The notes under the pieces are model-generated. The model was given only the letters and a program-made list of their open reading frames with translations. It did no database searches and had not been told where the DNA came from. A program made the position numbers and the translations under genes. Below are positions 4,620 to 52,912 of a DNA stretch of 64,000 bases, in pieces. Numbering within the stretch: position 1 is the stretch's first letter; each line of letters opens with the position of its first letter. The DNA is from Escherichia coli 042 (GTDB lineage: Bacteria; Pseudomonadota; Gammaproteobacteria; Enterobacterales; Enterobacteriaceae). Where the stretch lies: the NCBI RefSeq assembly GCF_000027125.1, contig NC_017626.1; one strand, written 5' to 3'.

Positions 4620-6161
<1,542 letters not shown>

Positions 6162-6229
6162 CCTTAAAGAAGCGTACTTTGCAGTGCTCACACAGATTGT
6201 CTGATGAAAATGAGCAGTAAAACCTCTAC

Positions 6230-6306
<77 letters not shown>

Positions 6307-6348
6307 AATTTGCACGGCAAATTTGAAGAGGTTTTAACTACATGTTAT

Positions 6349-6424
6349 GGGGCTATAGCTCAGCTGGGAGAGCGCCTGCTTTGCACGCAGGAGGTCTGCG
6401 GTTCGATCCCGCATAGCTCCACCA
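6349..6424 (+). tRNA. alaV: tRNA-Ala (TGC) in the 16S-23S spacer
   Basis: GGGGCTATAGCTCAGCTGGGAGAGCGCCTGCTTTGCACGCAGGAGGTCTGCGGTTCGATCCCGCATAGCTCCACCA, 76 nt. Confidence 0.97.
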
Positions 6425-6607
6425 TCTCTGTAGTGATTAAATAAAAAATACTTCAGAGTGTACCTGCAAAGGTTCACTGCGAAGTTTTGCTCTTTAAAAA
6501 TCTGGATCAAGCTGAAAATTGAAACACTGAACAACGAAAGTTGTTCGTGAGTCTCTCAAATTTTCGCAACACGATGATGAATCGAAAGAAACATCTTCGG
6601 GTTGTGA

Positions 6608-9513
<2,906 letters not shown>

Positions 9514-18077: not shown

Positions 18078-18403
18078 AATTCACTCATGAAAATGAGTTC
18101 AGAGAACCGCGAGATTTTTAATTTTGCGGTTTTTTTGCATTTAAATCCCGCTATTTCTCTGTTCAATGATTTTACTCTGGCGTAAGTGCGTGATTCTCGC
18201 TTGTTGTCTCATTTATTAAAATTCAATAATGATATCGAACCATTCAGCTTAAATATATTTTCTGAGAATGATTTTATATTGATTAAATGAATGTATATTT
18301 CATATTGATTTTGTTTGTTATTATTTAAGTGGGGTATATAATTAGAGTCCGTTATCAGTACTAAATATTCTAATCATCATGACAGGCGAGGGAGTGTCCG
18401 ATT

Positions 18404-19189
18404 ATGAATTCAAAAAAGGTTTGTTGCATATGTGTGTTATTCTCGCTGCTTGCAGGATGTGCCTCTGAATCTCCTATTGATGAAAAAAAGAAAAAAGCTC
18501 AAGTTACACAAAGTAATATTAATAAAAACACTCCCCCGCAACTGACAGACAAAGATTTATTCGGTAATGAAACCACTCTGGCTGTATCCGAGGAGGATAT
18601 TCAAGCTGCGCTTGAAGGAGATGAGTTTCGTGTGCCCCTCAGTTCTCCTGTAATACTTGTTCAGTCTGGTAGTCGCGCACCGGAAACCATTATGCAGGAG
18701 GAGATGAGAAAATATTATACAGTTGCCACATTTTCTGGCATTCCTGACAGGCAAAAAACTTTAACCTGTAATAAAGACAAAAACAAAGATGAAAGCCTAG
18801 ATATTGTAGATGCCGAAAATATGAACTGGATGCAGGCATTGCGTTTTGTTGCAGCAAAAGGCCATCAGAAAGCAATTATTGTTTTCCAGGATACGTTGCA
18901 GACAGGAAAATATGACTCTGGATTAAAATCAATAGTTTGGACAGATTATAAAAATCAAAAATTGACTGACACGATGTCACTGCGTTATTTGGTTCGATTC
19001 ACGCTGGTGGATGTGGCTACAGGTGAGTGGGCTACCTGGTCGCCTGTGAATTATGAATCGAAACTGATTTTTCCGCAGATAGGGAATAAAAATTCTGACA
19101 GCCTTGATGTGGCAGAACAGCAGATTTCACAACTTAAGCAGAAAACGTACGCAGCAGTGGTTAAAGACCTGGTGAATCGATATCAGTAG
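18404..19189 (+). CDS. yafT: Lipoprotein YafT
   Basis: 261 aa; signal peptide with lipobox LLAGC; AT-rich gene in an AT-rich neighbourhood. Confidence 0.8.
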
Positions 19190-40382: not shown

Positions 40383-40557
40383 TACGTGTAAAAAATGAGT
40401 GTCAGTAAGGAGTTACGCTTTCATGAGGGAGATGGCGGATGCCGGAAACCCGGGCGGTAGCGTACCTGAAAATGTAAAGATGAGTGTAACGCTGCACTGG
40501 CACCCTTTGCTGCATGGTAAGAATCATTTGGTCCGTGAATAAATCAGGGAGGTCATT

Positions 40558-42516
40558 ATGTCCTTAAAAGGTCTGCGCTTTACGCTGGAGATTGACGGCC
40601 AGGAGCCGGACACCTTTGCAGTGGTGCATTTCAGGTTAATCCAGAACCAGTCTTATCCGTTTGTGATGAGTGTGGATGTTGCCAGCGACTCTTTTATGCA
40701 GACGGCGGAGATGCTGCTGGAGAAGAAGGCGACGCTGACCATCTGGCAGGGCGTCATCCCGCTGCGTTATGTCACCGGCGTGGTGGCGGGTTTTGGCATG
40801 CAGGAGAACAATGGCTGGCAGATGCGTTATCACCTGCGTATTGAGCCGCCGTTATGGCGGTGCGGGCTGCGGCAGAACTTCCGTATCTTCCAGCAGCAGG
40901 ATATCCGGACGATATCGGCCACGTTACTGAACGAGAACGGCGTCACGGAGTGGACACCGCTGTTTTATGAGGACCATCCGGCGCGGGAGTTCTGTGTCCA
41001 GTACGGGGAAAGCGACCTGGCGTTTCTGGCGCGGTTGTGGGCGGAGGAGGGAATTTTCTTCTTTGAGCGGTTTGCGGCGGACAGTCCGGAGCAGAAGCTG
41101 ACGCTGTGCGACGATGTGGCGGGGCTGTCACAGGCGGGAGAGCTTCCGTTTAACCCGGACACATCGGCAGGAGCGGAGACAGAGTGTGTCAGTATGTTCC
41201 GTTATGAGGCGTATGTCCGCCCGTCGTCGGTGCAGAGCCAGGATTACACGTTTAAGGTGCCGGACTGGCCGGGGATGTATGAGCAGCAGGGTGAGAACCT
41301 GAACGGACAGCTGGAGCAGTATGAGATATTTGATTATCCGGGAAGGTTCAAGGATGAACAGCACGGCAAGGATTTCACGCTGTACCAGATGGAGAGCCTG
41401 CGCAGTGATGCGGAAAAGGCCACAGGGCAGAGTAATTCACCGAAGCTGTGGCCGGGAACGCGGTTTACGCTGACGGGGCATCCGCAGAAGATGCTGAACC
41501 GTGAATGGCAGGTGGTACAGAGTATTCTGTCAGGGGACCAGCCGCAGGCGCTGCACGGCAGCCAGGGGAGAGGAACCACGCTGGGAAATCAGTTAGAGGT
41601 GATACCGGCGGACCGGACGTGGCGTCCACGGCTGCAAAGCAAACCGAAGGTGGACGGGCCACAGAGCGCCATTGTCACCGGTCCTGCGGGAGAGGAAATC
41701 TTCTGCGACGAACACGGACGTGTGCGAGTGCAGTTTCACTGGGACAGGTATAACCCGGCAACGGAGGCGAGTTCATGCTGGGTGAGGGTGTCGCAGGCGT
41801 GGGCGGGGCCGGGATTTGGTAACCTGGCGATACCGCGCATCGGCCAGGAAGTGATTGTAGACTTCCTGAACGGCGACCCGGACCAGCCGATAATCATGGG
41901 GCGGACGTACCATGAGGACAACCGTTCGCCGGGGAGTCTGCCGGGGACGAAGACGCAGATGACGATACGGTCGAAGACCTATAAAGGAAGCGGCTTTAAT
42001 GAACTGCGGTTCGAGGACGCGACGGACAAGGAAGAAATTTACCTGCACGCACAGAAAAATATGCAAGTCGTTGTGCTGAACAGCAAGGATAAGCGGGTCA
42101 ACTATGACCGGACGGTCAGCATCGGGCATGATGAATCCCTGGTGGTGGCAAATGACCGGAAAGTGACGGTTGAAGGTAAACAGGACCATAAAACCACCAA
42201 AGACCATGTCAGCCTGACAGAGGGCAATCAGGGGCTGGAGGTGAAAGGCGATCTGGCACAGAAAATAAGCGGCGCGCTGGGTATCAGCGTACAGGGCGAT
42301 ATTGTTTTACAGAGCGACAGCAAAATCAGTCTGCGGGTGGGCGGTTCATTTGTGGTGATCCATTCCGGCGGCGTGGATATTAAGGGCGCGAAAATCAATC
42401 TTAACGGCGGAGGCAGTCCGGGAGACGTGATCCTGCCGATGCGCCCGGTGATCCTGAAAGCCGCAGCCGGAAGCGGGACAATGTTTGTGGCGCACTGCCC
42501 GAAGGAGGATAAGTGA
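40558..42516 (+). CDS. vgrG: T6SS spike protein VgrG (TssI)
   Basis: 652 aa; gp27-like N-terminus, gp5-like OB fold and repeat region; no obvious C-terminal effector extension. Confidence 0.92.
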   Translation: MSLKGLRFTLEIDGQEPDTFAVVHFRLIQNQSYPFVMSVDVASDSFMQTAEMLLEKKATLTIWQGVIPLRYVTGVVAGFGMQENNGWQMRYHLRIEPPLWRCGLRQNFRIFQQQDIRTISATLLNENGVTEWTPLFYEDHPAREFCVQYGESDLAFLARLWAEEGIFFFERFAADSPEQKLTLCDDVAGLSQAGELPFNPDTSAGAETECVSMFRYEAYVRPSSVQSQDYTFKVPDWPGMYEQQGENLNGQLEQYEIFDYPGRFKDEQHGKDFTLYQMESLRSDAEKATGQSNSPKLWPGTRFTLTGHPQKMLNREWQVVQSILSGDQPQALHGSQGRGTTLGNQLEVIPADRTWRPRLQSKPKVDGPQSAIVTGPAGEEIFCDEHGRVRVQFHWDRYNPATEASSCWVRVSQAWAGPGFGNLAIPRIGQEVIVDFLNGDPDQPIIMGRTYHEDNRSPGSLPGTKTQMTIRSKTYKGSGFNELRFEDATDKEEIYLHAQKNMQVVVLNSKDKRVNYDRTVSIGHDESLVVANDRKVTVEGKQDHKTTKDHVSLTEGNQGLEVKGDLAQKISGALGISVQGDIVLQSDSKISLRVGGSFVVIHSGGVDIKGAKINLNGGGSPGDVILPMRPVILKAAAGSGTMFVAHCPKEDK

Positions 42517-43355
42517 TGGAAACGGCACCCGTGCAGTACGCCATTGTGGATGGCGCTGTGGAGGAAGGATTGCTGGATTTTCTGAACGAGGTGAATCCCC
42601 CGCACTGTTGTCTGTATGCAGAACCCATACAACTGGATCTGGTCGCGCTAGCCCCCTATCTCGTGGAAGTCGTTCCGGAGGTTGAAGCATGGCTGAGTGT
42701 TAAGGCGTCGCCATGGGGAATATATCTGACTTCTGAGTCATCCATGCGTGAGCTACAGCAACACTTCAGACGTTATCTGTGGGTTAGGATCCCCGAACAG
42801 GAGAAACCTGTTCTCATGCGATTTTATGATCCCCGGAATATATGGGTATTAGTGGAAGTTCTGACCCCCCGCCAGCGTCTTTCTTTTATCAGTCCCGTCA
42901 GACAGCTAAGTACCCGTTATGGTGAAGAATGTCGTGAGGATAATTTTTCTTCCGTCCGTCCCGCAGAAACTATGAATATAAGGGCAGAACGGCCATCACA
43001 ACTGACGCTGAGTTACAGACAATATAGCCAACTGGAACGAAAGGCACGGGATAATTATCTTGATATATTATCTGCATTTATCGAAGAAAATGTAGATAAA
43101 AACGGATGGGATGATTCATCAAAAGCTGAATCATCCCGAATTCTGGCAGAAGATTATTTCTCTTTTTGCCAGTCATTAAATATAGCAGATGATCGTTCCG
43201 TCAGAACAATGACGCTTATATTACTGAAAAAAAATATAATCGATCTCAGATATATTCCGGATGACTGGTATGAACAACTCAGCAATCAGTCATACCCGGG
43301 ACATATTCGGGTACATGAACTTGCACAACAGGAACTGGGATTTATCCCACAATAA
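42513..43355 (+). CDS. DUF4123-family T6SS effector adaptor/chaperone (Tap/Tec-like)
   Basis: 280 aa; N-terminal QYAIVDGAV motif characteristic of DUF4123; start overlaps the vgrG stop by 4 bp. Confidence 0.7.
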   Translation: MMETAPVQYAIVDGAVEEGLLDFLNEVNPPHCCLYAEPIQLDLVALAPYLVEVVPEVEAWLSVKASPWGIYLTSESSMRELQQHFRRYLWVRIPEQEKPVLMRFYDPRNIWVLVEVLTPRQRLSFISPVRQLSTRYGEECREDNFSSVRPAETMNIRAERPSQLTLSYRQYSQLERKARDNYLDILSAFIEENVDKNGWDDSSKAESSRILAEDYFSFCQSLNIADDRSVRTMTLILLKKNIIDLRYIPDDWYEQLSNQSYPGHIRVHELAQQELGFIPQ

Positions 43356-43376
43356 AAAGACAAACGGATAGATTAT

Positions 43377-44948
43377 ATGACATCTCCATCTTCGACAGCC
43401 GGAAAGCCCTGTGTGGAATGCGGCATTCCTGATCCATGTATTTTTGATGTTATTAGTGATTTTCCAGAGGCCGGCGAGAAACATTTCTGGTCAAAAGAAG
43501 GAGTGGCGCGTTTTAAGCTACTGGATGATGGTTCCGGATGTGATGGTATAATTACCATTACCTACCAGTGCGATAAAAGTGGAACACATGAGGCATGGTT
43601 AGAGGAAGAATCAGAAAATAATCATAAGATACTGCAACCTTTCGGAATACCTAATAAGGTCACTTTGGATGATAACTTGTCTGAAGGTGAAATAATTGCT
43701 ATGGGTACATTTCGAGTACCATGGGATTATTTGGGGGCAATATCCTCTCCACTTAAGAATCATTATGAACCTGCCCATTATTCAGTCAGAATTGACAGTT
43801 GTTACGAATGTGGCAATTATGTTGAAATTGATGTTTATCCTACAGTGGAAATTAGGTTTACTACAGGGTTCAGCTATGAGATTTCGTCATCAAAACAGAC
43901 GAGAACAGTAAAAGAGCGGCGTGACGAAAGAATAAAAGCCAGGGACGCAATGGAGAACACCAAGCCCAGGGATAAAAATAAACTCCGTAGCGGCTGGACA
44001 AATACCACTGCTGAGTTTGAGTGGATAAACAAGACTTCCCTGACTGTCGATTTTGGCGTAAAAATAGCTAATGTTGAACACACAAGTGAATATGAAAAAG
44101 AGATAAAAAAACTTCGACAAACAAAGCAACTGGAACAGATAGGAAGAATTGACTCTCTGGTCAAGAATGTCAATAAATATTTTGCGCCAGATCCTGACAA
44201 TAATAATGGTACGCGCAAATATGCATTGTTCAGTGCAAAAATAGAACCCGTTAAACTGGGTATATCGTATGCCTATCAATATACCGATATCCAGGATGGC
44301 CCCTGTCATTTTTATGGTTTGTTTGGTGCCCCATTTTTTGAAGCGTCGTTCAGATTCGATATTATTTCATTTATATGTGCATATTGTAAAGTCGAGTCAT
44401 TGGTCAACAGATGTCGTGAATATCTCCGTAAAAACGGAGCCAGTGTTGAATGCTATATCGAGATTTCAGCGGAGATTAATCTTGATCTTGGCGCAGTATA
44501 CGCTGAAAAGGATAAAAAATGGGAGTTTAATGTAAAGGAAAGTAACATCAAGCTCGGTTTAAAAGGTGTGGTGAGTGCGACGTTTGAGGCGAATGTTTTT
44601 GTTGTACAACTGACCGCCGAAGCGACTGCCTCTATAGAAGCGAAAGCTGGATTTGGATTTGATTCACATGATGACGGACTGGACCTAGCATTATTTCATG
44701 ACGGCATTAAAGGGAAGTTTGAATTTAAGATTGATGTGTCTCATGGTGAAGTTGATGAAAAAGGAAAGGGGAAGGAAAAGAGCGAAAAACCTGAGAAGAA
44801 AGATACCGTTGAGTGGCAGTTATGTGATCCTATGGAGGTAAAGGATTCACCATTACGGGTTAATTTATACGGTAAAGAACGCACTGTGGAGAAAAAAGTA
44901 ACACCGCCGAAGCCAGTGACAACGTGGACGATAGGTATGGATTATTAA
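43377..44948 (+). CDS. Hypothetical protein, candidate T6SS cargo effector of unknown activity
   Basis: 523 aa, no signal peptide, Cys-rich N-terminal third, Lys/Glu-rich C-terminal tail; directly downstream of vgrG and the DUF4123 adaptor. No recognisable catalytic motif seen by eye. Confidence 0.55.
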   Translation: MTSPSSTAGKPCVECGIPDPCIFDVISDFPEAGEKHFWSKEGVARFKLLDDGSGCDGIITITYQCDKSGTHEAWLEEESENNHKILQPFGIPNKVTLDDNLSEGEIIAMGTFRVPWDYLGAISSPLKNHYEPAHYSVRIDSCYECGNYVEIDVYPTVEIRFTTGFSYEISSSKQTRTVKERRDERIKARDAMENTKPRDKNKLRSGWTNTTAEFEWINKTSLTVDFGVKIANVEHTSEYEKEIKKLRQTKQLEQIGRIDSLVKNVNKYFAPDPDNNNGTRKYALFSAKIEPVKLGISYAYQYTDIQDGPCHFYGLFGAPFFEASFRFDIISFICAYCKVESLVNRCREYLRKNGASVECYIEISAEINLDLGAVYAEKDKKWEFNVKESNIKLGLKGVVSATFEANVFVVQLTAEATASIEAKAGFGFDSHDDGLDLALFHDGIKGKFEFKIDVSHGEVDEKGKGKEKSEKPEKKDTVEWQLCDPMEVKDSPLRVNLYGKERTVEKKVTPPKPVTTWTIGMDY

Positions 44949-45014
44949 GTGATATTACAGAAATTAAAAGTGAACAGTATAATGAGTATTTTCCCCTTTT
45001 GAGAGAGAATAATT

Positions 45015-46025
45015 ATGAAGGCAAAACATTTAATATCGGTTATTTTACTGTCAGGAGTTGTTATGGGAACTGGATTTTGCTCTAACGATAACCAGCAAAA
45101 AATTCGCAGTAAGTTTAATATTGAAGAGTCATATTGTGCCATTAAGACTAATGGCGTCCTCGGGTTCAGTAACCGAAGAAGTGCCTGGCGGGCAAATGGT
45201 GATTCAACCGGGGCCATATCCAGCACCAATGCCATGATGCTGATGGCGAATGGAGAAAATGAAATCAGTCTGGAGATTGGGGCATTAGGATGGTTTTCTG
45301 ACAAGCCTGCCAGTATGGAAGAACGGGGGCGTTTTTTTCCAAAAGCAGGATGCAGCCTGGATTTGGTTCGTTTTATTAAACAGGAGGAAACGCTGCTTTC
45401 TTCAATAAAAGTGACCATCAACCAGCAGGGCATACCTGAAGCCCGGCCAGACAGCGTGCATCCCGTTATCCGGAAAGAGATTTTGGCTGAGCAGGCGGAG
45501 CCAGGATTTATTGATCCAGATTATTTTGATGAAACCTATTTCCCGAAAGGGATGAAGGTGTATCAGTTCACTCAAAAAGTTACCGTGACAGGGCTTCCTG
45601 AATGGGCCTGGACGCGGGCAACCCCCTATACCGGAAGCGACGAGCAGTTACGGAAGTTAAAAGCCGCCTATACCGAAATGGCAAGCATCATCAGTAGCCG
45701 GGACAGGGCACGTCTGAAAGCTTATAACAAAGAGGCGCTGAAGGCATGGTCAGCCACAACCGGTGACTCTGAGGATGACATATTACTCTCACTCTTCTCA
45801 AAAGATAATGTGGAGGGAGGGAAAGCCAGAATGCAGCCCATCAGGTGGGACGATTATGCCGTCCGGGTTATGAATGGTGGACGTATGGTGCAGCTATATA
45901 ATAAATCGAAACCAATATATTCCCCACTGACTTACCGTTTTACAGATGAAAGTGGTGAAGAGCGTATGGGGTATTACGCTCCGGTATTTTCGCTGATTGA
46001 TGGTCAGTTTATCCCTGTTACTTGA
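45015..46025 (+). CDS. Hypothetical exported protein, candidate cognate immunity protein
   Basis: 336 aa with N-terminal signal peptide (MKAKHLISVILLSGVVMGTGFC); immediately downstream of the candidate effector. Confidence 0.5.
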   Translation: MKAKHLISVILLSGVVMGTGFCSNDNQQKIRSKFNIEESYCAIKTNGVLGFSNRRSAWRANGDSTGAISSTNAMMLMANGENEISLEIGALGWFSDKPASMEERGRFFPKAGCSLDLVRFIKQEETLLSSIKVTINQQGIPEARPDSVHPVIRKEILAEQAEPGFIDPDYFDETYFPKGMKVYQFTQKVTVTGLPEWAWTRATPYTGSDEQLRKLKAAYTEMASIISSRDRARLKAYNKEALKAWSATTGDSEDDILLSLFSKDNVEGGKARMQPIRWDDYAVRVMNGGRMVQLYNKSKPIYSPLTYRFTDESGEERMGYYAPVFSLIDGQFIPVT

Positions 46026-46337
46026 TTAACCTGTTGGGCTACAAATCAGGATGTCCGGTAAGGTGATTATTACTGAGTTAAGCACCTTACCGTTTTTTAA
46101 ATTTTTTGTCGCTGATATTCCAGACAGGAAAACAATATGCCTTTAGCTGCCAGATTAAACGACAAAGGTACCGGCACAGGGAAAGATCACGTAACGCTGC
46201 TTTTTTGTACTAAATAATTCGCATTTTATGTTTAAAATTTGAGATATTCCTCATTACCTGAGGCTGTTTTTTATTACTTATACATGATCAAATACTCCTT
46301 ACATAATTAAGGGGAACAAAATGGAACTTAAAAATTG

Positions 46338-47262
46338 ATGGAACATATTTCTGTTATTCCCGATTACAGACAAGCCTGGAAAGTGGAACATAAATTGTCG
46401 GATATTCTACTGTTGACTATTTGTGCCGTTATTTCGGGTGCAGAAGGTTGGGAAGATATAGAGGATTTTGGGGAAACACATCTCGATTTTTTAAAACAAT
46501 ACGGTGATTTTGAAAATGGTATTCCTGTTCACGATACCATCGCCAGAGTTGTATCCTGTATCAGTCCTGCAAAATTTCACGAGTGCTTTATTAACTGGAT
46601 GCGAGATTGCCATACTTCAGATGATAAAGACGTCATCGCAATTGATGGAAAAACGCTCCGGCACTCTTATGACAAGAGTCGCCGCAGGGGAGCGATTCAT
46701 GTCATTAGTGCGTTCTCAACAATGCACAGCCTGGTCATCGGACAGATCAAGACGGATGAGAAATCCAATGAGATTACAGCTATCCCAGAACTTCTTAACA
46801 TGCTGGATATTAAAGGAAAAATCATCACAACTGATGCGATGGGTTGCCAGAAAGATATTGCAGAGAAGATACAAAAACAGGGCGGTGATTATTTATTCGC
46901 TGTAAAAGGAAATCAGGGGCGGCTTAATAAAGCCTTTGAGGAAAAATTCCCACTGAAAGAATTAAATAATCCAGAGCATGACAGTTACGCAATGAGTGAA
47001 AAGAGTCACGGCAGAGAAGAAATCCGTCTTCATATTGTTTGCGATGTCCCTGATGAACTTATTGATTTCACGTTTGAATGGAAAGGACTGAAGAAATTAT
47101 GCGTGGCAGTCTCCTTTCGGTCCATAATAGCAGAACAAAAGAAAGAGCCAGAAATGACGGTCAGATATTATATCAGTTCTGCTGATTTAACCGCAGAGAA
47201 GTTCGCCACAGCAATCCGAAACCACTGGCACGTGGAGAATAAGCTGCACTGGCGTCTGGACG
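46338..47262 (+). CDS. ISAs1-family transposase (H-repeat-associated protein), exon 1 of intron-interrupted gene
   Basis: Matches the intact copy at 49523..50659 up to ...[14 protein letters not shown] 1 nt shorter A-run than in copy 2 removes the MELKKL leader, so the start shifts to the ATG at 46338. The ORF-track tail [10 protein letters not shown] is intron-encoded read-through. Confidence 0.75.
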
Positions 47263-49153
47263 GTGTGCCGCAGGAACACAAGATAGCTGCATAAGGATAC
47301 GCAGTTAGCTTTTGTATAAGCTCATAAAGAGATGGTGGAAGGCCCACCGGGATCGGCTGTCGGAAGCAGATTCCAAACCACTTCATGCTGCTGTGGTAAA
47401 GAGCCATGGTAGTGAGCGATGAAGTAAAGCGTGAGTGAAAACTCAGCAGGTAAGATACTCATGAGACGAGTGAACCCGAACCCATGTTGACGCGTCGTAA
47501 ACCAGAGACTGACATCAAAACCGAAGGGGCGTCCAGCCTTCGGGATAAGTCTGCGAGTGAATTCCGAATGCTGCGCAGACGGTGTCCGGCGTAAAGTGGG
47601 CGTGACGGAGTATCAGGCTCTTCCTGGGAACTGCGGGAACCTGTCGTTGTGATGATAAGGGAGAAATGCAAGTCACTGAATTGGCGAGCATGAAAGTACC
47701 GATGCACAGCACAGGGACGGAGCCGTTCGTAGTAGTGATGAAGCTTCTGTAATGGAGGTGGAGCGAAGGGGCGGCATCAGACAGTCTTTGGACAGTGTTC
47801 AACTGAACATGTTCAGGAGGAGACAATGACAAAGACAAAAGCGTTTAACATTGATAAGTCACTGGTGGTCAGCGCGTACAGGCGAGTGAAGACCAGTGCA
47901 GGCGCGGCGGGAATTGATAAGCAATCGCTGGCGGACTTTGATAAACGGTTAGTTGATAATCTGTACAAAATCTGGAACCGACTTTCTTCAGGAAGTTATT
48001 TCCCACCGGCAGTGAAAGCGGTGGCAATTCCGAAGAAATTGGGTGGAGAGAGAATTCTGGGTATCCCGACAGTCAGCGATCGTATCGCGCAGACGGTGGT
48101 AAAACTGGCCTTTGAGCCACAGGTTGAGCCACATTTTCTGGCAGACTCTTACGGCTACAGACCGAATAAATCGGCACTGGATGCTATAGGGGTAACGCGT
48201 AAGCGTTGCTGGTATTACGACTGGGTACTGGAATTTGACATCAAAGGGCTGTTCGATAACATCCCGCACGAACTGATAATGAAAGCCGTGGACAAACACA
48301 ATCCGGCCCGGTGGGTAAAATTGTATATACAGCGGTGGCTGACAGCGCCGATGGTGATGTCAGACGGAGAAGTCAGAGCACGAACAATGGGAACGCCGCA
48401 GGGAGGTGTCATAAGTCCGTTGCTGGCAAACCTGTTCATGCATTATGTGTTTGATAAATGGCTGGCAAAATATTATCCGAAAGTGCCGTGGTATCGATAT
48501 GCTGATGATGGCATTTTGCATTGTCACAGCGAAGCAGAAGCGACTGAAATGCGAGAAGTATTACGCAAAAGATTTAGCGAATGCGGACTGGAAATGCATC
48601 CGGAGAAAACGCGAGTTATCTACTGCAAAGATGGAAGCCGGAAGGGTGATTATGAACATACCATGTTCGACTTTCTGGGGTACACATTCAGGCGACGCGT
48701 AGTAAAGAACGTTAAGCGAAACAGTCTGTTTGTAAGTTTTACCCCCGCAGCGAGCAAATCAGCGCTAAAGGCAATGCGTCGGGAAATCAAAGCGACAGGG
48801 ATAAGGAAAAGAGTGGATTTAAGCATTGAGCAGATAGCGAAATGGATAAATCCAAAACTGAATGGCTGGATAAATTATTACGGGCGATATACCTGTTCGG
48901 AATTATACAGCGTGTTCAGATATATCAATAAAGCACTGGTGAGGTGGGGGCGTAAGAAATATAAAATGCTCAGCCGATACAAGACAAGAGCCTCAAAATT
49001 TCTGGAAGAAATGGCGAAGCGAAGTCCACAGTTGTTTGCCCACTGGCGTCTGAAGATGAGAGGCGGACTTGTTTGATGGGAGCGGTATGAGCCGAGAGGT
49101 TCACGTACCGTTCTGCGAGAGGCTGCGGGGGAGGTTCCTGCGGCCTACTCACC
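47263..49153 (+). mobile_element. Group II intron (about 1.9 kb) inserted in the transposase gene
   Basis: Insert begins GTGTG (GUGYG consensus), contains the RT/maturase ORF in the position of domain IV, has a domain V-like hairpin (GAGCGGTATGAGCCGAGAGGTTCACGTACCGTTC, about 49080..49114) and ends just before the exon 2 sequence seen in the intact copy. Boundaries are good to about 1 nt. Confidence 0.8.
47826..49076 (+). CDS. Group II intron-encoded reverse transcriptase/maturase
   Basis: 416 aa; RT motifs including YADD ([11 protein letters not shown]) and a C-terminal maturase (domain X) region. Confidence 0.88.
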
Positions 49154-49347
49154 TGGTAATGAATGAAGACGACTGCAAAATAAGAAGAGGAAATGCAGCA
49201 GAATTATTTTCAGGGATACGGCACATCGCTATTAATATTTTGACGAATGATAAGGTATTCAAGGCAGGGTTAAGACGTAAGATGCGAAAAGCAGCCATGG
49301 ACAGAAACTATCTGGCGTCAGTCCTTGCGGGGTGCGGGCTTTCGTAA
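49154..49347 (+). CDS. ISAs1-family transposase, exon 2 (C-terminal 64 codons)
   Basis: Encodes [63 protein letters not shown], nearly identical to the C-terminus of the intact copy; joins exon 1 in frame. Confidence 0.75.
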
Positions 49348-49378
49348 TCTTTCCCTGGATGTGAAAAGCAGCTGCGGA

Positions 49379-50669
49379 CAGGGAAAGATCATCAGAAGTA
49401 CACTTTTTGTACTAAACAATTCGCATTTTATGTTTAAAAATTGAGATATTCCTCATTACCTGAAGCTGTTTTTTATTGCTTATACATGATCAAATACTCC
49501 TTACATAATTAAGGAGAACAAAATGGAACTTAAAAAATTGATGGAGCATATTTCTATTATCCCCGATTACAGACAAGCCTGGAAAGTGGAACATAAATTA
49601 TCGGATATTCTACTGTTGACTATTTGTGCCGTTATTTCTGGTGCAGAAGGTTGGGAAGATATAGAGGATTTTGGGGAAACACATCTCGATTTTTTGAAGC
49701 AATATGGTGATTTTGATAATGGTATTCCTGTTCACGATACCATTGCCAGAGTTGTATCCTGTATCAGTCCTGCAAAATTTCACGAGTGCTTTATTAACTG
49801 GATGCGTGACTGCCATTCTTCAGATGATAAAGACGTCATTGCAATTGATGGAAAAACGCTCCGACACTCTTATGACAAGAGTCGCCGCAGGGGAGCGATT
49901 CATGTCATTAGTGCGTTCTCAACAATGCACAGCCTGGTCATCGGACAGATCAGGACGGATGAGAAATCTAATGAGATTACAGCTATCCCTGAACTTATTA
50001 ACATGCTGGATATTAAAGGAAAAATCATCACAACTGATGCGATGGGTTGCCAGAAAGATATTGCAGAGAAGATACAAAAACAGGGAGGTGATTATTTATT
50101 CGCTGTAAAAGGAAACCAGGGGCGGCTAAATAAAGCCTTCGAGGAAAAATTTCTGCTGAAAGAATTAAATAATCCAGAGCATGACAGTTACGCAATTAGT
50201 GAAAAGAGTCACGGCAGAGAAGAAATCCGTCTTCACATTGTTTGCGATGTCCCTGATGAACTTATTGATTTCACGTTTGAATGGAAAGGTCTGAAGAAAT
50301 TATGCGTGGCAGTCTCCTTTCGGTCAATAATAGCAGAACAAAAGAAAGAGCCCCAAATGACGGTCAGATATTATATCAGTTCTGCTGATTTAACCGCAGA
50401 GAAGTTCGCCACAGCAATCCGAAACCACTGGCACGTGGAGAATAAGCTGCACTGGCGTCTGGACGTGGTAATGAATGAAGACGACTGCAAAATAAGAAGA
50501 GGAAACGCAGCAGAATTATTTTCAGGGATACGGCACATTGCTATTAATATTTTGACGAATGATAAGGTATTCAAGGCAGGGTTAAGACGTAAGATGCGAA
50601 AAGCAGCCATGGACAGAAACTACCTGGCGTCAGTCCTTGCGGGGAGCGGGCTTTCGTAATCTTGCCCTG
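49379..50669 (+). mobile_element. ISAs1-family (H-repeat) insertion sequence, copy 2 (intact), in tandem 21 bp after copy 1
   Basis: Inverted repeats CAGGGAAAGATCATC and TTCGTAATCTTGCCCTG at the ends; 1291 bp. Confidence 0.8.
49523..50659 (+). CDS. ISAs1-family transposase (H-repeat-associated protein), intact
   Basis: 378 aa, [50 protein letters not shown]...; DDE-type H-repeat transposase. Confidence 0.88.
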
Positions 50670-50778
50670 GTACAGTAAACAAACGAAAGTTGTTATTTCA
50701 ATGGTCAGGGCAAGAGCATGAAGTGTTTACTACACACTATGCTCTTGTCCTGGAGTCAGGTCTTGTTTGGAGGGATAA

Positions 50779-51282
50779 ATGGTAGATATTGTCGAGGCCG
50801 ATAAAACGGATATTTATTTCATTCAGGAGAGTGTTTATGGCAAAATCGGGTTGCCAGCTTTTGGTAATACAATAGGACCATCCGCACAGCAAGTTGTTAA
50901 AAAGGTATTCGCTGTCGTTAAAGAACGAGATAAGACACATGCAAAACAGAGATTATTGTTGGAATATAATGGTAACAAACTCTGGATGAATGCTATTGAT
51001 GGCAGTGAAGCTATCCTACCAACAGAATTTTCTAAGCGATACGAACTTTCATTATTTAATACTACTAATTTTGGAGAAGATCCTTTTCCTGATGTTAATT
51101 TATATAATAATATGAAATCAAGTTTTTTTGTAAGGTTTGGTGGAACATCCCATCCCGAGGCTTGGGCTATTTATAATGCAAGTACGAAAGAGGTTAAATA
51201 TATAGAAACTGCAAGAGAAATTGATAAAATATTCAGTGATTTTAACTTGAGTGGTACATTGCCAATTCACATTGGTCGATGA
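50779..51282 (+). CDS. Hypothetical protein (no signal peptide), AT-rich
   Basis: 167 aa ORF just right of the IS pair; no recognisable motif; may correspond to the small ORFs that sit between yafT and yafF in E. coli K-12 (unverified). Confidence 0.4.
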   Translation: MVDIVEADKTDIYFIQESVYGKIGLPAFGNTIGPSAQQVVKKVFAVVKERDKTHAKQRLLLEYNGNKLWMNAIDGSEAILPTEFSKRYELSLFNTTNFGEDPFPDVNLYNNMKSSFFVRFGGTSHPEAWAIYNASTKEVKYIETAREIDKIFSDFNLSGTLPIHIGR

Positions 51283-51348
51283 TTTTTTAAATTGTGTGAT
51301 TAAATAATTGAACATTAATGATGATTTATAGCATTATTATTCTATAAC

Positions 51349-51861
51349 ATGAATAAACGGATTGAATGTGTTATGTTAAAAATAAGTTTATACGTAATAA
51401 TATTGTTATTTTCCTTTCAGATTAGTGCAGCCATTACTAGCAAGGAAAGTGAGGTTGTTTCACCATTATTAATGGATGTTAATTCTTCACTAACAATGGA
51501 AAATATTTCTGAATTATCCACATCATCGGAACCATCGCAACAGGGGGTATTTCCTGTAATATGTACTCGACTTCATCCTGGCTCCGTAATGAAACGCCAG
51601 TTATTAACCGGCTGGGGGCCTGTTTTTATAATTGGTGATGATCCTTTTTCTCTGCGCTGGATGAGTGAACATCTGGAGATCCTTAAATCGCTAAATGCCC
51701 TTGGTTTGGTTGTTAATGTTGAATCAGTAGAACGAATGGAGGTATTACAGCAGCGGGCTGATGGGTTATTGTTATTGCCAGTTATCTGCGATAATTTCGT
51801 GCAAACTCTGCAATTAAATGCTTATCCGGTATTAATCACAGAGATGGAAATATCACAATGA
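51349..51861 (+). CDS. Hypothetical exported/membrane protein
   Basis: 170 aa with N-terminal hydrophobic signal (MLKISLYVIILLFSFQISAA); AT-rich; identity not resolved. Confidence 0.4.
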   Translation: MNKRIECVMLKISLYVIILLFSFQISAAITSKESEVVSPLLMDVNSSLTMENISELSTSSEPSQQGVFPVICTRLHPGSVMKRQLLTGWGPVFIIGDDPFSLRWMSEHLEILKSLNALGLVVNVESVERMEVLQQRADGLLLLPVICDNFVQTLQLNAYPVLITEMEISQ

Positions 51862-51887: not shown

Positions 51888-52102
51888 ATCGTAATTTTGA
51901 AAATGGTAATCCTGTTCACGGCACCATAATTAGAGTTATGTCTTGTATCCGTTCAGTATAATTTCACGAATGCTTTATTAACTGGATGCGAGATTGCCAT
52001 TCATCAAATGATAAAGACGTCATCGCAATTGATGGAAAAGCGCTTCCACACTCCTATGATAAAAGTGGTCGCAGGGGAGCGGGCTTTCGTAGTCTTAGCC
52101 CG
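51888..52102 (+). pseudogene. yafF: Internally deleted ISAs1-family (H-repeat) remnant, yafF-like pseudogene
   Basis: Matches transposase codons roughly 55 to 118 ([35 protein letters not shown]) fused at a GGGGAGCG microhomology to the last about 20 bp of the IS right end (GGCTTTCGTAGTCTTAGCCCG). Confidence 0.75.
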
Positions 52103-52132
52103 ACTCTCCCCGGCCCTAAACACAACACCCAC

Positions 52133-52912
52133 TCACCACAACCTAAACTCATCCGCATCCCGCCATGCCGGAAACTTTTCTCTATATTCCCGCAATGCCG
52201 CCATCGACAGCTCCGCATCAATGCGCGTTGCCTGATGCGCGTCGGCGGTGGCGATAATCTCGCCCTGTGGATTAATCACCCGGCTGTCACCGCGATAATG
52301 GCAGCCGTTGCCATCGCTGCCGACGCGATTGCATCCCGCCACATACGCTTGATTCTCAATCGCGCGGGCCGTCAGCAATGCCTGCCAGTGCAGAGAGCGC
52401 GGAGCCGGCCAGTTGGCGACGTACAGGGCGAGGTCGTAATCGTTGAGATTGCGCGACCACACAGGAAAACGTAAGTCGTAGCACACCAGCGGCAAAATAC
52501 GCCAGCCGCGCCATTCCACAATCACTCGCGCATTGCCCGCTTTATAATGCAGATGCTCATCTGCCATGCGGAACAGATGACGCTTATCATAAAAATGTAC
52601 CGTGCCGCCTGGCTCAACCAGCAAAAAGCGGTTAACCGAACCAGACTCCGTTTGTAATGCAACACTGCCTGCAATCAGCGCATTGCACTGCTGCGCTTTG
52701 GCTGTCATCCAGTTCACTACGTCATCTTGTGCTAGCGACGAAGCTGCCGCTTCCATGGCAAAGCCGCTGGTAAACATCTCCGGTAGAACGATCACATCGC
52801 GTCCGGTAATATCTTCCAGTTGACGATCAAAATGACGCAGGTTGGCAGGACCATCCATCCACACCAGTGGTTGCTGCAAAAGCGTAATCTTCAAACCAGG
52901 CACGGTGTACAA
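52133..52912 (-). CDS. yafV: Omega-amidase / nitrilase-superfamily hydrolase YafV
   Basis: Carbon-nitrogen hydrolase fold (catalytic Cys in VCYDLRFP); the start may be the GTG three codons in, at 52903. Confidence 0.88.

Follow-up and report, generated by a model that had tools for sequence, protein, structure and literature searches.

A two-gene module at the edge of the aspV type VI secretion island of Escherichia coli 042: a candidate cargo effector from an unnamed family and a DUF2859 protein outside an integrating conjugative element

The window analyzed here, a stretch of 64,000 nucleotides from contig NC_017626.1 of Escherichia coli 042, carries two small open reading frames (ORFs), ORF1 (50779..51282, + strand, 167 aa) and ORF2 (51373..51861, + strand, 162 aa), at the end of its type VI secretion system (T6SS-1) island. 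ORF1 defines an uncharacterised and probably T6SS-linked protein family, and its partner is probably a conjugation protein captured from an integrating conjugative element (ICE). We tentatively favour a reading in which ORF1 is an Hcp/VgrG-linked candidate effector and ORF2 its ICE-recruited periplasmic partner, probably an immunity protein. Taken separately, assignment of the ORF1 family to T6SS cargo is likely, an antibacterial toxin activity of ORF1 is somewhat favoured, and a role for ORF2 as the immunity protein of ORF1 is possible, a proposal that we make with reserve. The initial annotation of this DNA had described two AT-rich ORFs (50779-51282, 167 aa, and 51349-51861, 170 aa), the second with an N-terminal signal, wedged between mobile elements at the distal end of the T6SS island. 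Both observations hold, and the flanking elements are an ISEc1 insertion sequence (IS) and an ISAs1 remnant. The toxin/immunity-like module that it proposed is plausible, if unproven, given the position after T6SS cargo, the effector/immunity topology, the hcp/vgrG-linked family and the co-inheritance of the two genes described below.

The T6SS-1 island spans the interval from a tRNA-Asp gene (aspV, window 18001) to ORF1-ORF2, at the yafV end, and encodes tss genes, hcp, vgrG, a DUF4123 adaptor, a 523-aa protein and a 336-aa lipoprotein. Gene names and the start sites called by the Prokaryotic Genome Annotation Pipeline (PGAP) were taken from the annotation of the near-identical strain 118UI (NZ_CP032515.1, 222001-286000), to which a 1.3-kb query from the window is 99.9% identical. 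ORF1 and ORF2 stand after the vgrG-DUF4123 cargo, which comprises vgrG, the adaptor, the 523-aa putative effector and the lipoprotein (40558..46025, + strand). The G+C content of the ORF1-ORF2 region is 34.9%, compared with 51.3% for the whole window. An ORF of at least 160 codons arose in only 3 of 2000 shuffles of the 1.14-kb region, and the real sequence has two in tandem. Both are genuine genes of foreign origin, acquired by horizontal transfer. The AT-rich spacer between them (51283..51372, + strand) is 90 nt long and is represented by 38 nt and 27 nt at two related loci, L003 and L076. A sequence scan found no convincing terminator between the genes, and a promoter and terminator scan of the ORF1-ORF2 region returned sites no more frequent than in shuffled sequence. 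The two genes probably form one transcription unit.

ORF1 begins behind a strong GGAGG Shine-Dalgarno sequence, and its product is identical or near-identical to WP_000227713. A hydrophobicity scan and the sequence itself reveal no hydrophobic segment, no signal peptide and no cysteine. The 19-kDa protein is modelled as mainly beta, with three predicted strands of 16 residues. ORF1 matches nothing in Pfam, NCBIfam, PADLOC or PHROGs, and a sequence search of solved structures (PDB) with the ORF1-family profile was likewise negative. A word-indexed protein search recovered E. coli proteins only, including one variant that is 68% identical. A hidden Markov model (HMM) search of 1.84 billion representative proteins identified a family of ~190-194-aa proteins (E 1e-29 to 1e-10) that ranges across Enterobacterales, Burkholderiales, Pseudomonadales and Rhizobium. 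ORF1 shares with them, besides profile similarity, the conserved motifs IxE ... GxDPxP..LY ... F....GG...P.A, and it keeps every family-invariant residue (E17, G99, D101, P102, L108, Y109 and F116). It is a short form of this unnamed ~194-aa family: the proteins of Escherichia and of L076 (164-167 aa) lack a segment of ~30 aa that is present in other members after residue ~51. All true homologues among the representatives searched are stand-alone proteins of ~140-217 aa, so the suggestion that the gene might encode a C-terminal toxin domain detached from its Rhs, VgrG or PAAR carrier was not borne out. The only longer hits, of 373 and 849 aa, are spurious 'IEYNGE' repeat proteins; in P0031, P0035 and P0036, units of ~45 aa of the form 'IEYNGE.L....IA..E....' weakly and spuriously match the 'LLLEYNGNKLW' of ORF1. 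A literature search for the accessions found nothing.

To collect the genomic contexts of this family, we searched DNA with a degenerate pattern assembled by hand from its conserved motifs. The pattern retrieved 54 loci (17 species genomes and 37 metagenome contigs), all of them true members, with no false positives. Outside Escherichia, the family gene nearly always heads an operon with a gene for a 136-160-aa protein with four transmembrane segments (4-TM), usually followed by a third gene for a DUF805 membrane protein of ~100-123 aa. The family gene, the 4-TM gene and usually the DUF805 gene are translationally coupled by overlapping stop and start codons. These operons are small low-G+C islets at many different core-genome sites, such as can-hpt in Morganella, ppa-ytfP in Enterobacter and Lelliottia, gyrA-ubiG in Pantoea ananatis, marC-gntP in Erwinia and Pantoea, and next to motB in Yersinia.

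Several members stand among T6SS genes. In L004 the family gene lies directly 3' of an orphan hcp (the Hcp identity was confirmed), and in L008 it directly follows tssBC and precedes small genes that include those for STY0301-family and weakly CHAP-like proteins. The megaplasmids of R. etli IE4803 and R. leguminosarum WSM1689 carry a family gene (HMM E ~1e-27) between hcp and vgrG in their main T6SS clusters. Escherichia and a related genus have theirs where arrays of vgrG/PAAR cargo end. In total, family copies beside hcp or vgrG, or inside T6SS clusters, represent four independent placements among ~14 distinct insertion sites. By our own estimate, which is not a formal test, this adjacency to hcp and vgrG is far above chance.

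The 4-TM partners show no kinship with ORF2. tblastn found no homologue of the 4-TM family in the window, so that no remnant of it survives there either. Neither the long-form relatives of ORF1 nor their 4-TM and DUF805 partners have a match above threshold in PADLOC or PHROGs; P0042 has a sub-threshold match (E=0.06) to a PHROG of unknown function. The DUF805 (YhaH/YhaI-like) genes encode proteins with two or three transmembrane segments and occur, among other places, in L009 (9033-9404), L011 (9004-9336), L035 (8992-9315) and L027 (8701-9000). DUF805 is not known to take part in toxin-immunity systems. At two loci the 4-TM and family genes are convergent and not co-directional: the hcp-linked locus L004 (3009-3446, - strand) and L083 (10304-10630, - strand), a decayed copy from Salmonella Senftenberg that lies between sseK1 and rpoC. 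The Salmonella 'plasmid 4' record, which carries rpoBC and thi genes, looks like a piece of chromosome. In R. etli IE4803 (L081, 12637-13579) the interval between the family gene and vgrG encodes a 141-aa signal-peptide protein and a 167-aa protein whose Cys/His spacing is, by eye, reminiscent of Tae4-type amidases; these may be a Tai/Tae-like pair.

ORF2 is not the anonymous 'immunity-like' ORF of the initial annotation but a bona fide member of an ICE protein family. It matches TIGR03765 along the full profile (positions 1-105 of 105) with 120.6 bits against a cutoff of 59.75, and Pfam PF11072 (DUF2859) with E=2.4e-28; PGAP names it 'PFL_4695 family integrating conjugative element protein'. 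Searches with ORF2 against PADLOC and PHROGs gave no match. The start at 51373 is the more likely one because PGAP uses it and L003 offers no other; a 170-aa product from the alternative ATG at 51349 is also possible, since L076 has a 170-aa form. The protein begins with a Sec-type signal peptide, MLKISLYVIILLFSFQISAA (51373..51432, + strand), which forms a single N-terminal hydrophobic segment without a lipobox cysteine and which, from its sequence, is probably cleaved after ISA or SAA. Residues 60-162 (51550..51858, + strand) form a thioredoxin-fold domain in which all DUF2859 invariants are kept: G70, G88, D90, S93, W96, A109, G111, L146, Y151, P152 and L154. ORF2 has no CxxC motif and thus lacks the signature of a thiol-disulfide oxidoreductase. 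By position, D90-P-F-S93 would occupy the place of CxxC and Y151-P152 would form the cis-Pro loop. Because CxxC is replaced within the thioredoxin fold, a redox role is unlikely and a binding role plausible.

Members of the DUF2859 family are expected in ICE clusters, and ORF2 is not in one: the 64-kb window contains no type IV secretion system, relaxase, integrase or other ICE gene besides ORF2 itself. The nearest relatives outside Escherichia are 43-49% identical and belong to genuine Salmonella and Citrobacter ICEs, in which a gene for a lytic-transglycosylase-like (SLT) protein is followed by the DUF2859 gene, traD, and then genes for RAQPRD and DUF3262 proteins and, further along, TraC. 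In a neighbour-joining tree without bootstrap, the DUF2859 proteins of T6SS islands group in a single clade whose sister group consists of enterobacterial ICE proteins. The clade lacks the N-terminal 'VVADLGG' motif typical of ICEs. Its members have two cysteines (within VICTRL and VICDNF in ORF2) where most ICE homologues have Ser and Gly, and a structural disulfide is possible on this basis. ORF1 was also considered as an ICE gene and rejected; the HMM of its family matches nothing in ICE loci L016-L019.

The characterised member of this family is Orf71178 of ICEclc (CAE92923.1), a chaperone-like thioredoxin-fold protein that is located in the envelope and has an SPI-positive score, and deletion of orf71178 lowers ICEclc transfer 10-fold (PMC10018362). 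ORF2 shares with it a signal peptide, a linker and a C-terminal domain of ~105 aa that ends in ...YPVLIT..(I/L)SQ. It differs in its location outside an ICE, without SLT or traD neighbours, in the absence of 'VVADLGG', in its two extra cysteines and in being paired with ORF1 inside a T6SS island. Capture of a gene that neighbours a VirB1-like lytic transglycosylase gene in ICEs might be a clue that, in either context, a protein acting on the envelope or cell wall is bound. A literature search for DUF2859 in a T6SS context found nothing.

The pairing itself is strict. Wherever the short form of ORF1 occurs, a DUF2859 gene comes next and the two close a stretch of T6SS cargo. They are adjacent and co-oriented in three alleles, with ORF1/ORF2 identities of 95/90, 67/76 and 59/49%. 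Allele A occurs in the window, in 553 of 5426 complete E. coli genomes (coverage of at least 80%) and in E. whittamii (L025). Allele B (ETEC6335 and L003) has 67% (ORF1) and 76% (ORF2) amino-acid identity, and genes for DUF2169, DUF4150, PAAR-like, WD40-like, TIGR02270-like and cytoplasmic thioredoxin-like proteins precede the pair. Allele C (L076, 59% and 49%) comes from an enterobacterial host whose tssBC and yafV are ~78% identical to those of E. coli at the DNA level, and it is free of IS elements. Its pair is preceded by a vgrG-DUF4123-effector-immunity-PAAR series and then by a 5' fragment of vgrG, which suggests that a second vgrG once stood ahead of the pair. Between alleles A and B, the ratio of nonsynonymous to synonymous substitution rates (dN/dS) is 0.32 for ORF1 (dS 0.57) and 0.33 for ORF2 (dS 0.40); both genes are under purifying selection. 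At another locus, L080, a decayed remnant of a long-form ORF1 lies upstream of an intact DUF2859 gene. Because the long form was already paired there with DUF2859, capture of the latter predates the deletion of ~30 aa from ORF1.

Some features of these loci can be added. The three genes before ORF1, downstream of a PAAR-like protein, form a conserved trio in L038 (ETEC6335, 5927-8617), L003 (6931-9576) and L025 (2464-4139). Their products are a WD40/BNR-like protein of 327-342 aa, a TIGR02270-like HEAT protein of 411 aa that scores below the cutoff, and a cytoplasmic thioredoxin-like protein of 137-139 aa with a WCNNC motif. The trio was lost to IS elements in the window. The vgrG fragment of L076 (8595-8982), ~500 bp upstream of the ORF1 homologue, contains a 47-aa ORF (MSLEGLDFTLEVDSQEPDT...) and has 76% DNA identity to window vgrG at 40544-40942. 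For the window cargo at 42513-46025 (DUF4123 adaptor, 523-aa protein and 336-aa lipoprotein), L076 also has a counterpart pair with identities of 26% and 23%.

The topology of the two products is that of an effector and its immunity protein: ORF1 has no signal peptide, and the adjacent ORF2 combines a signal peptide with a soluble domain. We propose that ORF1 and ORF2 together would make up one cargo module of the T6SS-1 island at aspV, in which ORF1 would be a shortened member of a family of small soluble Hcp/VgrG-linked cargo effectors. Lacking a signal peptide, ORF1 would stay in the cytoplasm of the producer until fired by the T6SS. It may act on the envelope of the recipient from the periplasmic side, as all partner types in the family (4-TM, DUF805 and DUF2859) are located in the envelope and ORF1 has no export signal of its own. 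ORF2 would reach the periplasm via Sec, where its folded domain, a predicted redox-inactive thioredoxin fold, could bind incoming ORF1 and neutralise its putative toxicity. The DUF2859 gene was probably captured once from an enterobacterial ICE conjugation module of the Orf71178 type, and ORF2 may stand in for the 4-TM (and DUF805) inner-membrane partners of the relatives of ORF1. In its widest form, this proposal describes a widespread new family of Hcp-linked effectors, one lineage of which swapped inner-membrane immunity for an ICE-derived periplasmic thioredoxin-fold protein; we consider that version speculative and somewhat unlikely.

Should the proposal be correct, it would name a new T6SS cargo-effector family, currently annotated 'hypothetical', in many clinically and agriculturally relevant genera, with a tractable representative in E. 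coli. It would also mean that an immunity partner in one compartment can give way to one in another, and that the newcomer can stem from an unrelated secretion apparatus, the type IV system of ICEs. If the pair is inert, it is a well-dated case of island cargo decaying at an aspV boundary crowded with IS elements. In either case, the label 'integrating conjugative element protein', present in ~550 complete E. coli genomes, is no marker of an ICE and makes an annotation trap.

Known T6SS effectors offer parallels. Ssp4 of Serratia marcescens is a pore-forming T6SS effector with a 4-TM inner-membrane immunity protein, Sip4, and its family was assigned to the T6SS from mostly orphan islets together with some copies by hcp/vgrG or in clusters (PMC12669606). 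The wider ORF1 family resembles it in its islets among core genes, the absence of a signal peptide, the downstream 4-TM partner and the occurrence of some members by hcp/vgrG or within T6SS clusters. However, Ssp4 has a mass of 35.5 kDa, is largely alpha-helical and is predicted to contain membrane helices, whereas ORF1 is a 19-kDa, beta-rich protein without a hydrophobic segment, and its partner in the window is periplasmic and not 4-TM. Membership of ORF1 in the Ssp4 family was rejected on structure, and no sequence relationship was found. Re78 of Rhizobium etli Mim1 is a T6SS effector that is toxic only when periplasmic, and its periplasmic immunity protein Re79 has a signal peptide (PMC10215855). 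The two occupy the same hcp-X-vgrG slot as the ORF1-family genes of R. etli IE4803 and R. leguminosarum WSM1689, but Re78 is ~356 aa long and Re79 is not a DUF2859 protein; we rejected Re78 as an ORF1 homologue because its sequence, from the supplement of the paper, is unrelated.

Tfe1 (Ssp3) of Serratia marcescens, with its partner Sip3, is a domain-less Hcp-delivered effector of 183 aa, with homologues reported in Enterobacterales, Burkholderiales and Pseudomonadales (PMC6617251). This taxonomic range is like that of the ORF1 family (matches in the AlphaFold database), a likeness drawn from description and not from sequence. The gene order differs, as sip3 lies upstream of tfe1 and the 4-TM partner of the ORF1 family lies downstream; Serratia members of the ORF1 family are 193 aa long. 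ECUMN_0231-0233 of uropathogenic E. coli UMN026 have been proposed as a urinary tract infection biomarker and, by bioinformatic assignment, as a chaperone/effector/immunity system (PMC11114119). Their homologues at window 42513-46025 are cargo of the T6SS island that also holds ORF1-ORF2, next to which they lie, and the signal peptide in the window homologues, MKAKHLISVILLSGVVMG, is identical to the published one (PMC11114119). These proteins are unrelated to ORF1 and ORF2; they depend on DUF4123, and their candidate immunity protein is a lipoprotein.

Several observations weigh against a functional effector and immunity pair. ORF1 shows neither a recognisable toxin domain nor a catalytic motif, structure comparison finds no PDB match for its fold, and every member of its family is annotated 'hypothetical'. 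The Escherichia form, without the ~30-aa segment and the usual partners, may be inactive. The only role known for DUF2859 is that of an accessory in conjugation, and an immunity role for it has not been reported. At most family loci, the flanks available contain no T6SS gene, and the R. leguminosarum gene between hcp and vgrG has no partner gene at all, which fits either an effector that needs no immunity or an accessory protein. Within the island, PGAP calls vgrG truncated in the near-identical strain 118UI, ISEc1 stands in place of the native upstream region of ORF1, and the module has decayed in the CFT073 lineage, as has ORF1 in L080. The pair might instead be linked to the T6SS in another capacity, with ORF1 as an Hcp-associated accessory or as non-antibacterial (e.g., anti-eukaryotic or antifungal) cargo and ORF2 as a chaperone-like periplasmic helper of envelope assembly. 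Placement of family members directly beside hcp, the partnerless R. leguminosarum copy and the absence of a toxin motif are consistent with this, as are the chaperone-like, envelope-located character of Orf71178 and its mild effect on transfer; Tfe1 and Tfe2, moreover, are T6SS effectors without true immunity (PMC6617251). Orphan islets with two small membrane proteins, far from T6SS genes in most genomes, would however be unexpected for an accessory, a redox helper is unlikely given that ORF1 has no cysteines and ORF2 no CxxC, and the tight pairwise co-inheritance suggests that ORF2 is a specific partner of ORF1. We regard an accessory or non-antibacterial role as unlikely.

Decay must also be weighed. 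ORF2 could be the last remnant of an ICE once at or near aspV and ORF1 a crippled gene, both drifting between IS elements. ISAs1 copies flank the pair, the native upstream region is displaced, and ORF1 has lost ~30 aa and its 4-TM and DUF805 partners. Among complete E. coli genomes, ~86% lack the module, which was lost in K-12, is pseudogenised in the CFT073 lineage and has a decayed ORF1 in L080; it is dispensable. Yet both ORFs are intact and of conserved length, three alleles have persisted at dS 0.4-0.6 and beyond with dN/dS ~0.3, and all family-invariant residues are retained in both proteins. L076 has the same pair without any IS, and the ribosome-binding site of ORF1 is strong. Thus, non-functional debris seems to us quite unlikely. 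A soluble protein encoded with 4-TM and DUF805 proteins could also be a mobile module of another kind, such as a membrane-acting abortive-infection or defence system or another type of toxin-immunity pair, with no tie to the T6SS. T6SS neighbours are missing at most family loci, and low-G+C islets at varied sites resemble defence islets. Against this stand the four independent placements by hcp/vgrG or in T6SS clusters and the absence of PADLOC and PHROGs matches for all three proteins, and we judge it improbable. An Hcp/VgrG-linked candidate effector with an ICE-recruited partner is therefore the reading that we retain, with the reservations above.

The initial annotation had offered the K-12 genes ykfM and yafU as alternative identities for the two ORFs, and we rejected this: there is no protein or DNA similarity, and the strands differ. 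A tblastn search with ORF1 and ORF2 over the ykfM/yafU interval gave no match (the best in the K-12 locus, E=0.05, lies elsewhere), blastn found no counterpart of ykfM or yafU in the window, and these K-12 genes, which encode membrane proteins, are on the - strand, opposite to ORF1 and ORF2. Homology to K-12 ends inside yafT (window 18369-19188) and restarts at 52074. K-12 yafF is the 3' end of an ISAs1 element (window 50379-50658 and 52074-52133 compared with L002 7099-7420). The K-12 arrangement looks like a deletion between directly repeated ISAs1 copies that removed ORF1-ORF2 together with the T6SS cargo. In the CFT073/clone D i2 lineage (L037, 8136-9754), whose genomes match just the ORF2 half of the query, an IS630 remnant stands in place of ORF1. 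A 1-bp deletion that shifts the reading frame and a TGG-to-TAG stop make ORF2 a pseudogene there. PGAP still names the remaining 66-aa piece of CFT073 ORF2 'PFL_4695 family integrating conjugative element protein'.

Immediately upstream of ORF1 lies an intact ISEc1 of the ISAs1 family (49404..50670, + strand), identified from repeat families and annotation. Homology to L003 begins at window 50738; only ~41 nt of native sequence precede the ATG of ORF1, from which we infer that ISEc1 displaced the original promoter region. Downstream, an internally deleted ISAs1 remnant (51881..~52101, + strand), recognised by repeat match and sequence, corresponds to K-12 yafF, and beyond it are yafV, ivy and fadE. 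Further upstream, between the T6SS cargo and ISEc1, an ISAs1 copy (46202-49358) is interrupted by a group II intron (~47263-49150). The intron matches Rfam RF01999 at 47334-47451 and RF00029 at 49078-49153 and contains an ltrA-like reverse transcriptase/maturase ORF at 47826-49076; the intact ISEc1 follows next in tandem.

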